IMG/VR virus record: IMGVR_UViG_3300044961_000053
Span: 1-54,215 of that record
DNA from: a virus
Taxonomy: Duplodnaviria > Caudoviricetes
Strand: one strand, 5' to 3'
Length of the DNA stretch: 54,215 bases
Program-made: the position numbers and the translations under genes
The notes under the pieces: model-generated
What the model saw: the letters and a program-made list of their open reading frames with translations, nothing else
Database searches by the model: none
Told to the model about the DNA's origin: nothing
Shown: piece after piece, positions 6,097 to 54,215 of the stretch
Layout: every line of letters begins with the position of its first letter
Numbering within the stretch: the first letter of the stretch is position 1

Positions 6097-6332
6097 GTAT
6101 GTACTTCGGTGGTGGAAGTGAGTTCACTTTATTCCGTAAAGACGATGCGCGTGTATTACGTTTTTTCGCTCATCGAACTCGTGTAAGAAAATCTTACACA
6201 TTGCCAAAGGTAAATAATAAAGTGATACTTTCTGCTATCATAGTAAAGATAGGCCCCGCACAAGTTAATTCACTAAATTCCATCACTATGATTAACGCCT
6301 CGATTTATAGCCTAGTTCATAGGGGCCTATAG
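6093..6332 (+). CDS. Small basic hypothetical protein (77-79 aa)
   Basis: AAGGAG SD (GTG at 6093 or ATG at 6099); stop codon lies inside tRNA-Ile2. Confidence 0.5.
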   Translation: MSMYFGGGSEFTLFRKDDARVLRFFAHRTRVRKSYTLPKVNNKVILSAIIVKIGPAQVNSLNSITMINASIYSLVHRGL

Positions 6333-6399
6333 CTCAAGAGGTTAGAGCAGCCGCCTCATAAGCGGTTGGTTCTCGGTTCAAATCCGAGTAGGCCCACCA
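6323..6399 (+). tRNA. tRNA-Ile2 (CAT anticodon, lysidine type); elongator Met not excluded
   Basis: Acceptor GGGCCTA/TAGGCCC with C4-G69 and C5-G68, anticodon arm GCCGC-CTCATAA-GCGGT, TTCAAAT T-loop, encoded CCA. Confidence 0.9.
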
Positions 6400-6414
6400 T
6401 AGTAAGGATTAATA

Positions 6415-6900
6415 ATGAACATTTTCATGCTTGACGAAACTCCAAATAAAGCGGCGCTTTATCATTGTGATAAGCACGTGCCGAAAATGATTCTCGAATC
6501 CGCGCAGTTACTCTCGACTGCGCATCGGTTGCTGAATGGAAGCGATCAAGTCTACAAGGCTGCGTATGTCAATCACCCATGTGCGATATGGGTGAGACAG
6601 TGTTCCGAAAACTACGAGTGGACGTATTATCTATTCATAGAACTTAATAAACAGTTTGTTAATAGGTTTGGTGGCAAAGACCACGCTTCATACGCAAAAC
6701 TTTCTGATATACTGTCAGTGCCACCACTAAATTTACCAAAAGGTTCGATGACTGATCCGGCACTTGCAATGCCGGACATTTACAAGATTCCACAAAAGCC
6801 TGTGGAATCCTACAGAAATTACTATAAGCAAGCTAAGACGTTTGCTACTTGGGACAGAATTTGTAAAGGCTGGACTCCAGATTGGTGGAACGATTTTTGA
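6415..6900 (+). CDS. Pyrimidine-dimer DNA glycosylase / endonuclease V-like protein
   Basis: MNIF...HCDKHVPKMILESAQLLSTAH...NHPCAIW...AMPD...YRNYY motifs. Confidence 0.8.
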   Translation: MNIFMLDETPNKAALYHCDKHVPKMILESAQLLSTAHRLLNGSDQVYKAAYVNHPCAIWVRQCSENYEWTYYLFIELNKQFVNRFGGKDHASYAKLSDILSVPPLNLPKGSMTDPALAMPDIYKIPQKPVESYRNYYKQAKTFATWDRICKGWTPDWWNDF

Positions 6901-6973
6901 GACCGTAGCTCAACGGTAGAGCAGTGGACTTTTAATCCATTGGTTGCGAGTTCGACTCTCGCCGGTCTCACCA
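6899..6973 (+). tRNA. tRNA-Lys (TTT)
   Basis: Acceptor GAGACCG/CGGTCTC, GTGGA-CTTTTAA-TCCAT, TTCGACT T-loop, CCA. Confidence 0.95.
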
Positions 6974-6974
6974 C

Positions 6975-7304
6975 AGGTGTGATATGATTCGTAAATACTC
7001 ACAGTCTCGAATTGTGTCAAAAGGACGCATATTTGATAACTTGTTTTTACATCAAATTAGGCGTGCTGGAATTCTTTTAGCGAGTGTCAGTTACTTAAGC
7101 CCTGACAAAAATAAGCGTGATTATGTAGTAAAATGCAACGTAAATAGGAAAACTTTCACTGGCGTAGAGAACGAATTTTAATATAAACTGAGTGATGTAT
7201 GCACCACAGAGTCGTAGAGCCAGAATGGACATATTCACTGTCTGAAATATGCGTCCTTTTGACACAATCCGAGACTGTGAGTATTTACGAATCATATCAC
7301 ACCT
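6975..7304. repeat. 60-bp inverted repeat (6975-7034 / 7245-7304), 59/60 identical
   Basis: Aligned manually; one mismatch; 210-bp spacer. Confidence 0.95.
6984..7181 (+). CDS. Small basic hypothetical protein (65 aa); first 17 codons lie in the inverted repeat
   Basis: AGGTG SD-like sequence before ATG. Confidence 0.45.
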   Translation: MIRKYSQSRIVSKGRIFDNLFLHQIRRAGILLASVSYLSPDKNKRDYVVKCNVNRKTFTGVENEF

Positions 7305-7492
7305 TTAGATGGTTTTGGTCAGCATCATTACGCTATTTTAAACATTTTGAACGTTCTACAATTTCCTTACAAATCTGGTGCCCAAAGCTAAGAGTATATA
7401 CTCCATTCAAAGCCTTTGAAACTTGCATTGTATCTGAACCTACTACAAAACTTAAAGACTACATAGGCACTCTCGGCATTAAAGTTTTATGA
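7199..7492 (+). CDS. Hypothetical protein (97 aa), paralog of the next ORF
   Basis: HRVVEPEWTYSLSE vs YRAVEPDGTLAVSD; KDYIGTLGI vs KEYVSITGV; ATGA coupling. Confidence 0.6.
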   Translation: MHHRVVEPEWTYSLSEICVLLTQSETVSIYESYHTFRWFWSASLRYFKHFERSTISLQIWCPKLRVYTPFKAFETCIVSEPTTKLKDYIGTLGIKVL

Positions 7493-7725
7493 TGTACTAT
7501 AGAGCTGTGGAGCCTGACGGAACCTTAGCAGTTAGTGATTGTAAATCACTTTGGCAGTCAGTTTTGGCTCAGCATACTAGACTCAGAATAGTACGACTTT
7601 TTTATCGCAGCGACTATGCTGCTACTATGTATGATGAAAGTTTTGTAGGTCGGTTTTCTACGACGTGTTTAAAAGATTGTAAAGAATATGTAAGCATCAC
7701 TGGAGTTTCCTTTGTGCCGCTATAG
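7489..7725 (+). CDS. Hypothetical protein (78 aa)
   Basis: Paralogous to the upstream ORF; stop codon lies inside tRNA-Arg. Confidence 0.6.
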   Translation: MMYYRAVEPDGTLAVSDCKSLWQSVLAQHTRLRIVRLFYRSDYAATMYDESFVGRFSTTCLKDCKEYVSITGVSFVPL

Positions 7726-7792
7726 CTCAATGGGATAGAGCAATGGATTTCTAATCCATTCGTTGTAGGTTTGAATCCTACTAGCGGCGCCA
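7716..7792 (+). tRNA. tRNA-Arg (TCT)
   Basis: Acceptor GCCGCTA/TAGCGGC, ATGGA-TTTCTAA-TCCAT, variant T-loop TTTGAAT, CCA. Confidence 0.92.
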
Positions 7793-7876
7793 GTACATGC
7801 ACCGTAAGCGTACTACGGTATCCGCTGCAATGCGGATAACTCCTTGAACCTGAGCCGGCAGGGTGTACGCACCGGC
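7793..7876 (+). ncRNA. Candidate structured RNA (tRNA-sized four-way junction)
   Basis: Closing stem GTACAT/GTGTAC plus three internal hairpins; starts at the base after the tRNA-Arg CCA. Confidence 0.4.
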
Positions 7877-7899
7877 ACTTATTGAATGGAAATCGCAAA

Positions 7900-8109
7900 A
7901 TGAATATCAACATAATGGCTTCTGCGTTTCGTTTAAACGTAACGCAAATAGATGGGGTAGACATGGCATCTATAGGTACCGAGCGTTACTATTCGTTTAT
8001 TAGTAACGTGTGCCAAATTTACAACCGCTCATGGATTCATATAAATAGCGGCCACTTACACGATATGTCTAGTGTACAATATTTTGAAGGTAGCGGCCAC
8101 AAAGAATAA
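7900..8109 (+). CDS. Small hypothetical protein (~69 aa)
   Basis: ORF fills the gap before tRNA-Leu; start uncertain. Confidence 0.4.
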   Translation: MNINIMASAFRLNVTQIDGVDMASIGTERYYSFISNVCQIYNRSWIHINSGHLHDMSSVQYFEGSGHKE

Positions 8110-8115
8110 AATTGC

Positions 8116-8200
8116 GGGGCTGTGGCGAAATAGGTAAACGCAGCGGACTTAAAATCCGCCGACTTCGGTCTTAAGGGTTCGATTCCCTTCAGCCCCACCA
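8116..8200 (+). tRNA. tRNA-Leu (TAA)
   Basis: Acceptor GGGGCTG/CAGCCCC, GCGGA-CTTAAAA-TCCGC, long variable arm, TTCGATT T-loop, CCA. Confidence 0.95.
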
Positions 8201-8230
8201 TATCAAAGACATTAGTAGGACCAATTATTT

Positions 8231-8443
8231 ATGCCTAATCAAAAGTCAAAAATTAGCGGCGTACAATATACGCTGATTAGAGAAAGGGATGCAAAGTACA
8301 GTATATTTTTGAACAGTCGCGTTTCCAGCTTTAGTGTGTGCGACTTTGTTATAAAAAATAGAAAATTAGTCTGTTATTTCAGAACTACAAAAGTTAACAG
8401 TTCCCCTGTAAGTACAGGGTGTGAAATAGCTTTAGTAGGGTAG
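8231..8443 (+). CDS. Small basic hypothetical protein (70 aa)
   Basis: AGGA SD, AT-rich ORF. Confidence 0.45.
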   Translation: MPNQKSKISGVQYTLIRERDAKYSIFLNSRVSSFSVCDFVIKNRKLVCYFRTTKVNSSPVSTGCEIALVG

Positions 8444-11387: not shown

Positions 11388-11729
11388 ATGGAACGCCCAT
11401 ATCGTCTTGGTGGAAAGACTTATAAGGTCCGAGCGCCTCATATCGAAGGCGCTATTTATATCACCATAAACAATGATGAAAAAGGAAATCCTGTTGAGTT
11501 ATTTGCTAACACTCGAAACGCGGAGAGTGTCGCATGGCTCACAGCGGTTACGCGCTTGGCCACTATGGTGCTCTCTAATGGCGGCGACGCAAAAGCCGTT
11601 GCGAGAGAACTCAAATCAGTATTCGATCCGCGAGGAGGTTACTACGGAAACGGTGGGCATTTAACACTGTCTGTAGTAGCTGAGGTTGGTAGTCTACTTG
11701 AACGTCACATAGGAGATAGTAATGAATGA
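11388..11729 (+). CDS. TSCPD-domain protein (class II RNR C-terminal / NrdJb-like)
   Basis: GKTYKV...IYITIN...PVELF...AVTRL...ELKSVFDPRGGY...SVVAEVG. Confidence 0.78.
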   Translation: MERPYRLGGKTYKVRAPHIEGAIYITINNDEKGNPVELFANTRNAESVAWLTAVTRLATMVLSNGGDAKAVARELKSVFDPRGGYYGNGGHLTLSVVAEVGSLLERHIGDSNE

Positions 11730-24300: not shown

Positions 24301-27300
24301 AATACCTTCGGCAGCCGCACCTTTAGATGCAGCGTTGTAAATATCATATCGCGCAACAGCCTGTGCAATAGTAACTAAGTTGTTAGTTGTTAGATAAGGA
24401 GGCTTTCCAAGGACAGACCTCCAAATATTAGTAAACAAAGTTCTAACAGCTTCGATAAACTTACTTAAAGTATTAGACTTTTTAGATAAATTAAGTTTGA
24501 CAGCTTCTTCGATCGCATAAGGCAGTATTTCGGACTCATAAAATCCGCTTGCCTTTGCGCGTTTGTTAGCAATTTGAAAAACTTTGTACTCGGGGCTATC
24601 AAATTTAGCGTTGGCCCACGATTTTACTTGAGCTTTAAGCTCATTATATTTTGCATCCGAGTTTAAATAGCGCGCAAGACTACGATGCGCAACTTCGTGC
24701 GCATAAACCGCTATGCCATCTTCGATAGAATCTAAGTTGCTTGCTACGACATAAATGTTTCCAGTTGATGAGTCAAAAACTCCTTTGACGCCAAAAGAAC
24801 GTAGGTCTAGCGATTGTTGAGTTCTTTGGTATACGCCATTCTTGTATCTTTTAGAAACAATAAAAGCTACTCTATGCGAAGGCTCTCTTTTTGAATCGAG
24901 TGCGCGTTCGATTTGTTCGGGTGTAAGAGTTATGTCTTCCCGTTCAGCAACAGCTAAACGAACATTTTCATTAGGCTCTCTTTCTGGATCAAGAGCGCGT
25001 TCGATTTGTTCGGGTGTAAGAGTTATATCTTCTCGTTTGACAACGGCTTCACGAACGTATTGACTAGGTTCTCTTTCTGGATCAAGAGCGCGTTCGATTT
25101 GTTCGGGTGTAAGAGTTACATTTTTTCGTCTAATAACCTCTATGCGAACAAGTCCATTAGGTTCTCTTTCTGGATCAAGAGCACGTTTAATTTGTTCAGG
25201 CGTAAGAATTACATCTTGCCGTTGAATGACAGCTGTACGAACTGCACTAGAATACCTACTTTTTGGATCAAGAGCATGTTCAATTTGTTTGGGTGTAAGC
25301 GTTATATCTTGTCGTCGAACGACAGCTAGATGAACGCGAGAATCGGGTTCTATTTCTGGATTAAGAACACGTTCAACTTGCTCAGGCGTAAGAATTACGT
25401 TTCTTTGTCCAGCAACACCTCTACGAATTTCTTTTGGTACGCTATTTGGGTCTAAATAATCGTATTTACCAGTAGAGTGCAGTGCTAAGTAGAGCGTGAT
25501 ACTAGCACTTTCACTTAAAGTGTAATTTTTAGTAAAATTCTGTATTTCTTCTGCGTATTCTGGAGGAATAGTGCCGTCGTTCCTCTGAGACTGAATCTCT
25601 ACAATTTCATCTCCTTGAAATCTAACTGCTAACAAAGACTCGTTGTCTTTGCGAAAAACAAACATCGGCCCTAAAAGAGCATATGTTTCTTCCACTCCTC
25701 GACTAGTACACCAGTCTTGTCTAGTTCCTTTAGCAAAACTTAGATTTCTCCAAATAGCAAACTTTTTATTGCGTTCTTCTTGAGAATCTGTATTTAAAAC
25801 TTGAGGCAACTCAATCCATCGGCCTCCTTCAAGGCCGACGATAGTAGTTTCAGCAATTTCTTCTGCAAAATTTTGCGCTATTTCAGCATACAATTTAAGA
25901 GCTTTTTTAGGCGTTGCAACTCTATTATTCTTAAAATTTAACGCTACTTCCGCTGTTGCAGCGGGTATTAATCTAGGCGGCAATTCAAATGTATTGCTGT
26001 CAAGACCAGCTATAGACATACGAAGCAAAAGAGACTGTAGTACAGGCTCTGTTGAATAAGCATTCTTTAAATAATTGTAATTAGCGTCGATAACTTCTTG
26101 CTGACGCGCTCTAGCTTGCTCCACAACTACTTCATCACGCCCGGCTATACGTCTAAGAGGGCTGCCTTTTATTCTGACATTTTCAAAATCCTGTCTAGCA
26201 AGCTCGTTAATATCTTCTAAAGTTTTTGCATTAGCAAACTCAACCCACTTACCTTGGTCTGCCAAAGTAATCCAGCTTGCGTACTCGTTTTCTGCTTTAA
26301 ATCGCGCGACTTTCTGGCTAAACTGAAGTTCAGAAGTTCCGTACTCAAACGGCAAGTCAGCTTCGGTATCGACTATACGAAATCGAGAACTTAGTAATTC
26401 AGGATTTTTAACACCAACCCAGTCAGCAATAGCGGACCAAAGTTGCTGAACTCGTACAGTCCTAAGTCCAGACGTGACTTCAAAACGCTGACTCAGTTCA
26501 ATAGGGCGCGAGCGATTCTCACCCTCCATTGACGGAAGATGCGTATCCAATGCCGCTTGAAGTTCAGTAGCGCCCACGCCATTGCGTTCGGCAATAGAGA
26601 TAATAACCTGCTCTTTTAGATCTCTAAAAAATTTTGGTGAAGCCAAAAAGGCCGCCCGCATCTTAGCAGGAAACCTACTTTTTGCTGCTTTTTTAGTTAT
26701 GTCTAAAATATCTACAGCAGACTTAACCCATTCAGAAACTCCATCGGCCGTTAAGTCAGTTGGTTTTGGAATATTTTTAAAGCCAATTTGAACAAAGTCA
26801 TTAATTAGTTCCGGCGTAATTTGAACAGACGCATCGGTCGGAGGCGTGGGAGCAGCCGGAGCGGAAGCAGCCGAAGGCGTGGAAGCAGACGGAGCAGCCG
26901 AAGGCGTGGAAGCGGCCTCAGCAACCAGAGGCACAGAAGCAGCCGGAGCAGAAGCGGGCGGAGGCGTGGAGGCAGCCGAAGGCGTGGGAGCAGCCGGAGC
27001 GGAAGCAGTCGAAGGCGGCGATACGTCAGGCCGCCGTCTCAAAACATCTTGACGAACTTGGTTAGTATTCGCAATCGCAGCATCATACGTAGCAACAATG
27101 TTACTAAGTTGTGTAGCAAGTCCACGTTGCGTATTCGACACTCTATTTTGCGGAACTCCAAGAGCTATGCCGGTATAAACAACATCCTCAGGAGTTATAA
27201 TTTCTGGGTTTTTAGTCAGCTCTCTAGCTGCATTTGCTATACGGCCAGTCATTTCATTGCGCGCTAAATTTTCTACAATATTTAAATTCACAGTATTAGG

Positions 27301-29004: not shown

Positions 29005-29333
29005 TAGACGGCATCCACTAAATCACGAAGAAACTGACGAAGTTGCGCTCTGTCAACCGGCATAAATTCAGTATTCGGTCTATAATCAATAGGATTGTAA
29101 GCTACATAAGTAGCGCCATCTGGATTTAACACCACTCCCATTCGATCAAGACCGTACTTAGCTATAGCGGAAGGCTCTTTGTATTTAGGTTTTTTGCAAT
29201 CATCCGTAATTTCGTAACGCATAACTAACTCGTCATCAGCCAGCGCATTTGCTACAGCTTCGTCATACAGTTCTCTGTGTTCACGCGCTGCTTCGCTAAG
29301 TGACGACTCGTTATAAAGTTTAGAGTAGTCCAT
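29004..29333 (-). CDS. Hypothetical protein (109 aa)
   Basis: AAGGTG SD; TAATG coupling to the giant gene. Confidence 0.75.
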   Translation of the reverse strand: MDYSKLYNESSLSEAAREHRELYDEAVANALADDELVMRYEITDDCKKPKYKEPSAIAKYGLDRMGVVLNPDGATYVAYNPIDYRPNTEFMPVDRAQLRQFLRDLVDAV

Positions 29334-29341
29334 AACACACC

Positions 29342-30784
29342 TTAATACGCAGCTAAGTTATCTTTTTGTTGAATTTCTGCTAAAGCCGCACGTACTTTAG
29401 GTATGTAATCTCTCGTTTCTTTTGGTAGAGCCGCTAAATTTAATATTCCTTGGTTAGCAGCTAAGTTGCTTTTAATTCTTCTTGGGCCGTAGTTGTATGC
29501 AGCGAGAGCCGCATCTTCGTCTCCAAAATTTCTCAGCAAGGCGTTATAGTACTCACTACCAAACTTAACATTAAGCTCCGGAATAAACAAAAGCCGCTTA
29601 GCTTCTTCAAGTGTTCGGCTTGAATAAGGAATGCCCATTTCATCTGCCATATCAAAAATAGATTTGACTCCAAGACCCGGGTCAACAGCAGTATTTGGCA
29701 TGACTTGCATTATACCGATAGCCCCTCTTGGACTTACAGCATTAGGGTTATTTCCGGATTCAACTCTGCTTATAGCTTCAATAATTGGACTTAACGTAGG
29801 TTGAGAAAGTTGTGGAGTTGAAATGTTGGATTGAATAGGCGACAGGTAAGAAGGAAGTTTAAATTGGTCTGGAAATGCATCAGCCGGGTTACGTAGGCGA
29901 GTTACAGTCTCATAAGGTGGTAGCCTGTTCGCTGATATAGAAGTGGGTCTTGGTCTAGAAAAAAGAGCCCCGCGTTCTACACGAGTATTATATGGACGTA
30001 AGTACTCGCTATCAAATGCACTATACTGATCGGTATAGTTTCCGGCGCTTCTATATATTGAGCTATCGTATAACATACTTGGGTTAAACTGCTCGGTCGG
30101 AGCAGCCGAAGCCGAAGGCATGGGAGCAGCCGGAGCCGAAGGCGTAGGTGCAGCCGAAGCAGTCGGAGCAGCCGGAGTACCCGACGGCATCGCGCCGCCA
30201 AGACCAAACATAGAACTTACAAGCCCAGTCGGCGTTCCGCTTGCATTAGATTGCCCTCTTCCTTGAATTTGAGCGGCGATTACAGCACGACGAAAACTTT
30301 CTGGATTGCCCCTAGCTAAGTCGTCCCAACTTAGCATTGTAGTTTTCCCATCTGGCGTAGTAATAGCAAGTCCGTCGTCATTCGGCGTAGCTTGCATTCC
30401 TTTATCAGCATAGAGCTGTACATATCCACTAGGATCGCCAAGTGTTAACCAACGAAACGCAGCGGCGTCAATAGCCTGTGTTTCAGCTTGAGCTTCAGGC
30501 AACTTAATTCTAGCTTCAAATTCTCTAGCAGCTAAAGAGTCACTAGGAATAGTCGATTCGCCCATGTTGTAGTAACGGCTGAGGGCGTCCCGCATTCTTT
30601 CCTGACTTACTTTAAGGGGATTCAGTTGTTCATTTAAACGGAAGTTCTGCTCATTAAGAGCACGTTGAAGTTCTTCGTTACGAAGCTGCGATCTAAGTCT
30701 TTTATTATTGCCAATAAGTTGGTCTGCCGCGGTGTAGCCAGCTATATAGCTAGTAAACGGCATAGCGAAAGTATTTCTGGCCAT
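29342..30784 (-). CDS. Internal virion protein with a C-terminal lytic transglycosylase (SLT/GH23) domain
   Basis: VESG, GAIGIMQVMP, ALAAYNYG, ETRDY motifs. Confidence 0.88.
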   Translation of the reverse strand: MARNTFAMPFTSYIAGYTAADQLIGNNKRLRSQLRNEELQRALNEQNFRLNEQLNPLKVSQERMRDALSRYYNMGESTIPSDSLAAREFEARIKLPEAQAETQAIDAAAFRWLTLGDPSGYVQLYADKGMQATPNDDGLAITTPDGKTTMLSWDDLARGNPESFRRAVIAAQIQGRGQSNASGTPTGLVSSMFGLGGAMPSGTPAAPTASAAPTPSAPAAPMPSASAAPTEQFNPSMLYDSSIYRSAGNYTDQYSAFDSEYLRPYNTRVERGALFSRPRPTSISANRLPPYETVTRLRNPADAFPDQFKLPSYLSPIQSNISTPQLSQPTLSPIIEAISRVESGNNPNAVSPRGAIGIMQVMPNTAVDPGLGVKSIFDMADEMGIPYSSRTLEEAKRLLFIPELNVKFGSEYYNALLRNFGDEDAALAAYNYGPRRIKSNLAANQGILNLAALPKETRDYIPKVRAALAEIQQKDNLAAY

Positions 30785-50148: not shown

Positions 50149-50428
50149 CTTGAATTACTCGCTGAAGTTCATCGAATCTTCTGATATAAGTACGATCCAA
50201 TTTAGCACTTTTATCTGCAATGCCTTCGAGGACTGCACTTTTTGCAGTAGCGACGTTTTCTTTAATTTCTGCAATCTCTTTATCTTTCATCGCCAGCATA
50301 GCGCCGTATCTTACATCCTGAATAGTCCAAGAAGTAAACCCACCGGCAACTATGCCTAAAATCGCTAAACTTGCGCACAATTTAGCCATCGTGGACGCTG
50401 AAAGCAGCTTTACTGGTGTAGCCATCAC
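49982..50428 (-). CDS. i-spanin (Rz-like)
   Basis: N-terminal TM segment plus coiled coil; follows the endolysin. Confidence 0.75.
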   Translation of the reverse strand: MMATPVKLLSASTMAKLCASLAILGIVAGGFTSWTIQDVRYGAMLAMKDKEIAEIKENVATAKSAVLEGIADKSAKLDRTYIRRFDELQRVIQDAKVSAKISDSEPRLLTPDELCILEQAERIARGDSMPASCSKARTAVSTSQYNQN

Positions 50429-51138
50429 ACACCTCGCTCTTTATAGACACGAAACCGCCCCCATGCAGCGATTCCAATACCTACTAGCGTAAGAACCACG
50501 AACACCGTTTTAACGACATCCGAGTACACTACAAGCGGTGCAACCTCACTCGCTAACTGAGCGGCCTCCGTACCAACTACTCCTACAGCACTAACTGCAA
50601 GTCCTGCATTAGTTGCAGACTTTAATGGGTATCGAGGATTTTCTTCGGGAGTTTCTGACGCAGGTTTTGGATTTCCCATCAACTCCAGCATTCCTCTCTC
50701 AAACATCTGCCTTTCTTTAGCACGTCGAGCTACTAAACCCGGCAAAGGTTCAAGTTTTCCAGTCTTGGGGTTTCTTGAATTAACCCATCTGCCAAACTGT
50801 TCAGCAGCTTTTACATACTCTCCTTCGTTGAGATACCGAAGAAGCGTCGAAGTTTTAAATCTCTCACACCCAAAATTAAAGACAAAACTCACCAGCGCAT
50901 CGAACATCAACTGATTTATTTTCTGTGACACGTGCGTATTCACACACTGCTCACAAAGCATAATGTCTCTTGCAAGCAAATTTTCTGCTTGCGCCTCATC
51001 AATGCGCATTCCTTCTCTAGCAGTTCTAGTATGCCCATACCCAATGGTCCACTTTCCTGCCGGACATCTGTAGGCTGAGAGCCGCAGTCCTTCACTCTGT
51101 TTTATTAGAGCCGCTCCGTGTGCGCTTATCTTGTGCAT
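50425..51138 (-). CDS. Endolysin (GH24 lysozyme) with a C-terminal hydrophobic extension
   Basis: EGLRL.AY.CPAG.WTIGYGHT, FDALVSF.FN.G, GL..RR..E. Confidence 0.92.
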   Translation of the reverse strand: MHKISAHGAALIKQSEGLRLSAYRCPAGKWTIGYGHTRTAREGMRIDEAQAENLLARDIMLCEQCVNTHVSQKINQLMFDALVSFVFNFGCERFKTSTLLRYLNEGEYVKAAEQFGRWVNSRNPKTGKLEPLPGLVARRAKERQMFERGMLELMGNPKPASETPEENPRYPLKSATNAGLAVSAVGVVGTEAAQLASEVAPLVVYSDVVKTVFVVLTLVGIGIAAWGRFRVYKERGV

Positions 51139-53883: not shown

Positions 53884-53935
53884 GAGGCAGGAGGTAAACA
53901 GCAAAGGGCCGGGTGCCTTGGTCCGCATGGGGGTA

Positions 53936-54075
53936 GGCTAGAAGTGACGTGGATGAAGTGATTAGGGGCTAGAAGCTGGAGGCTAGAGGTTACGTGAGTG
54001 TAGTAATTGAGGGCTAGAAGCTGGAGGCTAAAGGTTACGTGGGTGTAGTAATTAAGTACTAAAGGTCGCGTGGAT
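53936..54075. repeat. 45-bp tandem repeat (two full copies at 53966 and 54011 plus degenerate flanks)
   Basis: GGGCTAGAAGCTGGAGGCTARAGGTTACGTGRGTGTAGTAATTRA. Confidence 0.85.
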
Positions 54076-54088
54076 GGGGTTGTGGAGG

Positions 54089-54215
54089 ATGTGGGAGTTA
54101 TAGGGGTGCGGGTTGTTGGACGGCGCCCCGGCACTCCTCATGGTCCGCATAGGGGGCCGCCACCTAGTAGCCGTCAGCTCACCACCAGCTCACCACCAGC
54201 TCACCACCAGCTCAC
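54089..54215. repeat. Terminal direct repeat, right copy
   Basis: Identical to 1-127. Confidence 0.95.

Follow-up and report, generated by a model that had tools for sequence, protein, structure and literature searches.

Hairpins cut by RNase III are familiar processing sites of phage transcripts, as in the early mRNA of T7 and at the sib retroregulator of phage lambda, and the processing hairpins known to us are short and imperfect. In the hok mRNA, a translation-activator element at the 5' end pairs with the fbi element at the 3' end, and in Neisseria the Correia elements represent bacterial MITEs. At the DNA level, the sites used by recombinases are typically much shorter than the 60-nt arms that are the subject of this report. 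Programmed inversions, which include invertons, the Gin/Cin/Hin systems, Rci shufflons, and gene-altering or intragenic inversions, have been surveyed in published work; in two such papers the repeat searches began at 14 bp (PMC9881135; bioRxiv 10.1101/2023.03.11.532203), and the former notes invertible regions without a nearby recombinase (PMC9881135). Here we describe a long inverted repeat of a phage that has some likeness to each of these systems and that is best explained, with a probability that we place at about 0.55, as a fixed, non-programmed inverted duplication with a predictable effect at the RNA level.

The window that we analyzed is the whole record, a complete virus genome of 54,215 bp, and the phage is an uncultured, lytic-type phage of hot-spring mats. 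Its repeat region is present in 10 public runs labelled as hot-springs or microbial-mat metagenomes, none of them recorded as an RNA run; several of the 10 seem to be identical data filed twice, and the runs and the six contigs discussed below come from a few related samples and are not fully independent. The record begins and ends with a 127-nt repeat (1-127 and 54089-54215, 100% identity), which, given how assemblers behave, looks like the overlap of a circular contig and not like true phage ends. The helicase of the phage is at most 36% identical to that of any phage in the collection, and no close cultured phage was found there. The gene content of the two halves of the genome is given in Table 1 together with the features of the repeat locus.

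Some further observations were made along the genome. A stand-alone TSCPD-domain protein of 113 aa is encoded among the replication genes (11388-11729, E = 1e-10). A minus-strand gene of 2546 aa contains five tandem 93-nt (31-codon) repeats, and GC-rich short-period repeats with spacings of 9-33 nt are common to this gene and to a gene of 480 aa (24880-25428, 26814-27020 and 30082-30198). Three tandem 45-nt repeats adjoin the end of the record (53935-54069) and two copies of a 24-nt repeat, 40 nt apart, are present at 1030-1093; both sets are near a switch of gene orientation and GC skew, and are candidate origin or packaging repeats.

Table 1. Features of the phage genome and of the inverted-repeat locus. 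Codon scores are to be read against 0.263 +/- 0.117 for true genes and -0.077 +/- 0.148 for open wrong frames.
Feature	Position	Strand	Content	Codon score
Plus-strand gene block	~2.7-21.4 kb	+	AAA ATPase, DUF2201 metallopeptidase/VWA protein, phrog_624 protein, SNF2-type helicase, family-A DNA polymerase, PD-(D/E)XK nuclease, primase/helicase, ligase	
tRNA-Met	6323-6399	+		
Lineage-only stretch	~6408-8115	+	1.7 kb; phrog_624 gene, tRNA-Lys, repeat-bearing spacer, tRNA-Arg	
tRNA-Lys	6899-6973	+	Anticodon UUU; encoded CCA; ARAGORN; Rfam tRNA, 76 bits	
Left arm	6975-7034		AGGTGTGAT ribosome-binding site, ATG at 6984, codons 2-17 of ORF6984	
ORF6984	6984-7181	+	65 aa, basic (13 K+R vs 5 D+E)	0.128
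Spacer	7035-7244		210 nt, GC 0.37; rest of ORF6984, 18-nt gap, first 15 codons of ORF7199	
Minus-strand ORF	7095-7295	-	66 aa; 17-aa N-terminus common to ORF6984, hydrophobic C-terminal part	0.049
ORF7199	7199-7492	+	97 aa; covers spacer, right arm and right flank	0.014
Right arm	7245-7304		Inverted copy of left arm, 59/60; in-frame 60 nt (20 codons, phase 1) of ORF7199; on the minus strand, ribosome-binding site, ATG and 17 codons of the 66-aa ORF	
ORF7489	7489-7725	+	78 aa; ATGA overlap with ORF7199; extends 10 nt into tRNA-Arg	0.163
tRNA-Arg(UCU)	7716-7792	+		
tRNA-Leu	8116-8200	+		
Structural genes	21.4-54 kb	-	Including portal/adaptor and large terminase	

The arms of the repeat are 60 nt each, 59/60 (98%) complementary and 210 nt apart. 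A single nucleotide (C at 6974) stands between the CCA of tRNA-Lys and the start of the left arm at 6975. Each arm consists of AGGTGTGAT-ATG and 16 further codons (MIRKYSQSRIVSKGRIF), and their sole mismatch, A at 7010 versus C at 7269 as read on the plus strand, falls on the third base of codon 9 of the ATG frame, where CGA and CGG both specify Arg. A previous sequence-only reading of this DNA had described 59/60 arms around a 210-bp spacer 1 nt past the tRNA CCA, a ribosome-binding site, ATG and 17 codons per arm with a synonymous CGA/CGG mismatch, a basic 65-aa continuation on the plus strand, a 66-aa continuation with a hydrophobic C-terminus on the minus strand, and a right arm within ORF7199; we recovered every one of these elements.

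Chance alone would give about 3e-25 repeats of this kind in DNA with the size and composition of this genome. No other long inverted repeat exists in the 54,215-bp record, where the runner-up has 28 nt at 75% identity. No match at E<=1 was obtained by blastn of 6975-7715 against phages and plasmids, and megablast and blastn of 6300-8300 against phages returned tRNA matches only. An exact 30-mer of the arm had 0 matches in viral_contigs and an exact 26-mer had 0 in genome_contigs, searches with exact words that diverged copies would escape. The symmetry ends sharply with the arms, as none was left in the spacer or in the outer flanks. At the arm junctions we found no target-site duplication and no microhomology, the flanks ...CCAC and TTAG... 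having nothing in common.

The repeat is present in the same form in the assemblies that we examined. Identical, error-free pieces of it were observed at phage-level depth in the separately assembled Logan k=31 contigs of 4/4 runs examined, namely 6917-7004 (6915-7004 in run X5), 6980-7299 with both mismatch variants, and a third piece that starts at 7275; contigs of this kind have to end within the 35 nt over which the arms match exactly, no joints between them are reported, and rare flipped forms would be invisible in them. The exact sequence of ORF7199 exists only in the assembled orientation, since it joins the spacer to the right arm and right flank, and this ORF thus marks orientation; it was found with its flanking genes on 6/6 contigs, all of which have one consensus orientation. 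The contig count was equally six for ORF6984, ORF7489, the upstream gene, and the downstream ORFs (5+1 for the last). That the same pieces with both mismatch variants recur in all four runs, and exact spanning proteins on all six contigs, indicates that the repeat is fixed and predates the population sampled. Were the segment to flip at close to 50:50, one would expect assemblies to break there or to differ from one another.

Comparison with the only syntenic relative found, L024, in which the VWA protein is 54% identical, revealed that the repeat lies in DNA particular to this lineage. In L024, tRNA-Met and tRNA-Leu are 5 nt apart (8140-8305); both tRNAs (91% and 81% identity) and the downstream 124-aa protein (62%) are common to the two phages and nothing between the tRNAs is, which is why we regard ~6408-8115 as belonging to this lineage only. 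No inverted repeat of at least 25 nt was present in L024. The breakpoint of the 1.7-kb block coincides with the 5' end of tRNA-Leu, and the GC content of the block is 0.41 versus 0.455 for the genome. Its phrog_624 gene (6415-6900) overlaps tRNA-Lys by 2 nt on the same strand. Relatives of the phrog_624 protein were detected at 6 loci in viral_contigs and 14 in metagenome_contigs with best-segment identities of 36-53%, the 53% spanning only 62 residues (49% at full length), and 0/20 of these loci have tRNAs. A search against Rfam gave only the four tRNAs and sub-threshold noise. A 5.4-kb contig of run X5, at a depth of 298 versus 79 for the phage, also has a tRNA-Lys whose flanks are different and which shows 4 differences from 6898-6973; it may be that of the host or of another phage, and is a possible lead to the host.

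The interval that contains the repeat is densely packed with reading frames. Plus-strand ORFs of at least 60 aa fill 96% of 6974-7730, which 0/5000 dinucleotide shuffles reached (mean 6%, maximum 75%); these are ORF6984, ORF7199 and ORF7489, separated by the 18-nt gap and the ATGA overlap. The motif AGGTGTGNNATG has four matches in the genome versus 0.04 expected, of which two are the arms and two are the starts of structural genes (29333 and 50425). Because of this recurrence at two other gene starts, the left arm, in its "start" sense, looks like a working phage ribosome-binding site. At these structural-gene starts the pattern AGGTGTG-NN-ATG is found on the minus strand (29331-29342 and 50423-50434), and it suggests that the true start of the gene at 50425 is the ATG one codon past the GTG of the longest ORF.

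The codon scores of the small ORFs are intermediate and do not decide which of them are real. ORF6984 matches only itself among 5.8 billion clusters, and ORF7199 likewise only itself in a full HMMER read of 1.84 billion representatives. The minus-strand 66-aa ORF has no homologues, is absent from the protein collection and is not called as a gene, and Pfam and PHROGs returned nothing for any of the four small ORFs. The Atlas model of ORF6984 has a pLDDT of 0.41, and its structure neighbours are all below the bar. ORF7199 and ORF7489 have similar-looking N-termini, and a paralogy between them was considered and dropped when no alignment was obtained at E<=100. A promoter and terminator scan gave 11 promoter-like sites versus 6.3 +/- 2.3 expected, none compelling; one of them, at 7420-7393 on the minus strand, is upstream of the minus-strand ORF. 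By eye only, the right arm contains a TTGACA, with a poor -10 sequence (TATTTA) coming 17 nt after it.

Both continuations of the shared start are open as far as observed in just 0.08% of 20,000 dinucleotide shuffles. This low figure is mostly due to the plus frame, which is open for at least 48 codons through the spacer in 1.9% of shuffles and which a real gene explains. The minus-strand ORF is codon-for-codon antisense to ORF6984, and the same-register antisense frame is open in 16.5% of 49-codon windows of the long real genes of this phage; with antisense openness this common, the minus-strand ORF needs no special explanation. ORF6984 is thus probably a real small gene, and the plus-strand small ORFs in general are probably real accessory genes without known relatives, ORF7199 being the least certain; the codon scores of ORF6984 and ORF7199 are under the true-gene mean, which makes the coding status of ORF7199 uncertain. 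The 66-aa minus-strand ORF is probably a by-product of the duplication.

All four tRNAs and the genes around them are on the plus strand. Since all neighbouring genes and tRNAs read rightward, we infer from gene orientation that the two arms should be co-transcribed and pair. In the predicted fold of 6899-7330, the cloverleaf of tRNA-Lys is kept and the arms are fully paired as 35 bp, an A·C mismatch and 24 bp, with a folding energy of -167.8 kcal/mol (z = -12.2; 0/100 shuffles as good), so that the 60-bp RNA duplex proposed from the sequence is robustly predicted. An equal fold was predicted for the opposite strand, where a G·U pair takes the place of the mismatch. No RNA structure beyond that of shuffles was predicted for the spacer alone. 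RNase III-type enzymes act on stems of about two helical turns or more, which the predicted 35+24 bp exceed, and a duplex of this length is long enough for cleavage by RNase III.

We hypothesize that a 60-bp block came to be present twice, in opposite orientations, within what appears to be a fast-evolving accessory stretch of tRNAs and small genes without relatives. One copy provides ORF6984 with its ribosome-binding site, ATG and first 17 codons, and the reversed one would serve as 20 in-frame codons of ORF7199; with junctions this sharp, either copy may be the original. The DNA would keep one orientation, and the duplication would make itself felt through an RNA hairpin. In a rightward transcript, the arms would pair as a 35+24-bp duplex starting 2 nt past the CCA of tRNA-Lys, and the predicted duplex would make both the start codon and the ribosome-binding site of ORF6984 inaccessible. 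It would also be a candidate target of a double-strand-specific RNase of the RNase III type, and a cut there would detach tRNA-Lys on its 3' side from the RNA that follows and break both small messages. A birth of new genes by inverted duplication had been the last of the readings offered previously; the inverted duplication with its new ORF ends is directly visible in the sequence and forms the core of our explanation. The event is ordinary in kind, and its coding geometry is neat.

The same geometry would suit an invertible segment, as the sequence-only reading had proposed. Homologous recombination by the host or phage, or a host invertase, would flip the 210-bp spacer between the arms. The shared start would then lead into the hydrophobic 66-aa product in place of the basic 65-aa one, and ORF7199 would lose its start. 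Arms of 60 bp at 98% identity should suffice as homology for recombination, and the phage has a PD-(D/E)XK nuclease of a type typical of phage recombination modules. The rarity of two open continuations in shuffles also fits such a switch; however, the antisense frame is of a common kind, and the minus-strand ORF has neither homologues nor a gene call. The six contigs have a single orientation, and in the four runs there were no variant letters at 7010 and 7269, albeit in contigs that drop rare variants. No relative with the flipped form, which had been suggested as something to look for, turned up in any collection searched; exact words of the arm had no match outside this genome, and the syntenic L024 is without the repeat. 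Profiles of serine and tyrosine recombinases (PF00239, Resolvase, and PF00589, Phage_integrase) had no match at E<=1 in the complete phage record and did match control genomes, which bears out the earlier remark that no invertase is encoded, although an enzyme of the host may be available. On these grounds the switch is unsupported by our data, minority forms being invisible to them, and we regard an invertible segment as very unlikely. In a particular version of it, a lytic phage would do without a recombinase and flip the segment back and forth by homologous recombination between its 60-bp arms, the flipped state being a minority form unseen in consensus assemblies; one start would toggle between a basic soluble 65-aa and a hydrophobic 66-aa protein, with ORF7199 turned off simultaneously. 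We would expect this version still less. An origin in assembly or amplification, such as a chimeric fold-back, might be suspected of a metagenome-derived record whose 127-nt terminal repeat resembles an assembler overlap, and is extremely unlikely given that the same pieces occur at even, phage-level depth in four separately assembled runs, that the same proteins are on six contigs, and that the arms differ at one fixed position.

A mobile element could also have left a pair of sharp-ended terminal inverted repeats at the 3' end of a tRNA, and the small size of the unit (330 bp with 60-nt repeats, no transposase and no family matches for its ORFs) would be as in a MITE. The absence of target duplication and of junction microhomology, though, leaves a transposon-type insertion unsupported. 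The unit has a single copy in the genome, its exact words are absent from viral_contigs and genome_contigs, and it has no phage or plasmid match; among the contigs listed for the four runs, no foreign contigs or loose ends were seen at the arm borders. Moreover, the ends of the supposed element are a ribosome-binding site of working type and coding sequence, and we consider a MITE inserted beside the tRNA quite unlikely. A tentative alternative, which we hold to be unlikely on balance, is that the hairpin has been selected as a processing and silencing device, which would release tRNA-Lys through RNase III-type cleavage and inhibit ORF6984 and ORF7199 by fold-back in a manner analogous to lambda sib retroregulation or to the 5'-3' fold-back of the hok mRNA. 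The duplex starts 2 nt past the CCA and covers exactly the ribosome-binding site, ATG and 17 codons, its sequence is fixed in every sample seen, and a polycistronic cluster of tRNAs and small genes needs processing anyway. Against selection on pairing, the 59/60 identity and the very sharp edges have the look of a recent copy, Rfam has only tRNAs here, and the region has no relatives in the collections searched with which covariation could be assessed. The fixed inverted duplication that we favor also has points against it. The two open continuations are what a two-state coding switch predicts, the 59/60 identity could also be maintained by gene conversion or occasional flipping, and the codon scores of ORF6984 and ORF7199 are lower than expected of true genes. 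In addition, selection should act against a perfect 60-bp hairpin that shuts off two genes, provided that those genes are important, and its fixation all the same hints at either a function or dispensability; the hairpin may accordingly have been selected or may just be tolerated.

If the repeat is merely a fixed duplication, it illustrates how accessory regions of phages gain new ends of reading frames. This is because an inverted copy of a gene start provides a ready-made second ORF and, at the same time, an in-frame insertion in the neighbouring gene. It also calls for caution with repeat-based predictors of invertible DNA, as a long perfect repeat that overlies coding sequence does not necessarily flip. 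Should the phage make use of the hairpin, this RNA duplex would be unusually long for a cis-acting element, and it would link the release of a tRNA to the silencing of two small genes. If flipping were true after all, the locus would be a coding switch in a virus without a dedicated enzyme.

Comparison with the systems introduced above places the locus beside several of them. Like programmed inversions, the phage locus has inverted repeats (60-nt arms, 59/60) that flank a short segment overlapping coding sequence, a flip of which would swap protein ends (PMC9881135; bioRxiv 10.1101/2023.03.11.532203). It differs from them in that no gene for a serine or tyrosine recombinase is present within the 54-kb phage record, in the single orientation of all six assemblies, and in arms that are made of a ribosome-binding site and coding sequence and not of a recombinase site. 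With the Correia elements it has in common a small unit bounded by inverted repeats that would form an RNA hairpin when co-transcribed; unlike them, it is single copy, without a target duplication, and without relatives in the collections searched. The likeness to the RNase III hairpins of T7 and lambda sib is by analogy: the phage stem would be part of a polycistronic transcript, and the predicted cut would part neighbouring RNAs and destabilize a message. In contrast to those hairpins, the phage stem is 60 bp and near-perfect, its 210-nt loop contains most of a gene, and there is no conservation that shows selection. As in the fold-back of hok, the translation start of a small gene would be silenced through pairing with a sequence further down the same RNA. 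The phage pairing is three times longer than that of hok and perfect, however, the plus-strand protein is basic and no membrane toxin, and we saw no sign of an antisense antitoxin RNA at the locus. Overall, in its putative function the locus most resembles, by analogy, the RNase III sites of phages, lambda sib and the hok fold-back, and we claim membership in none of these classes for it.
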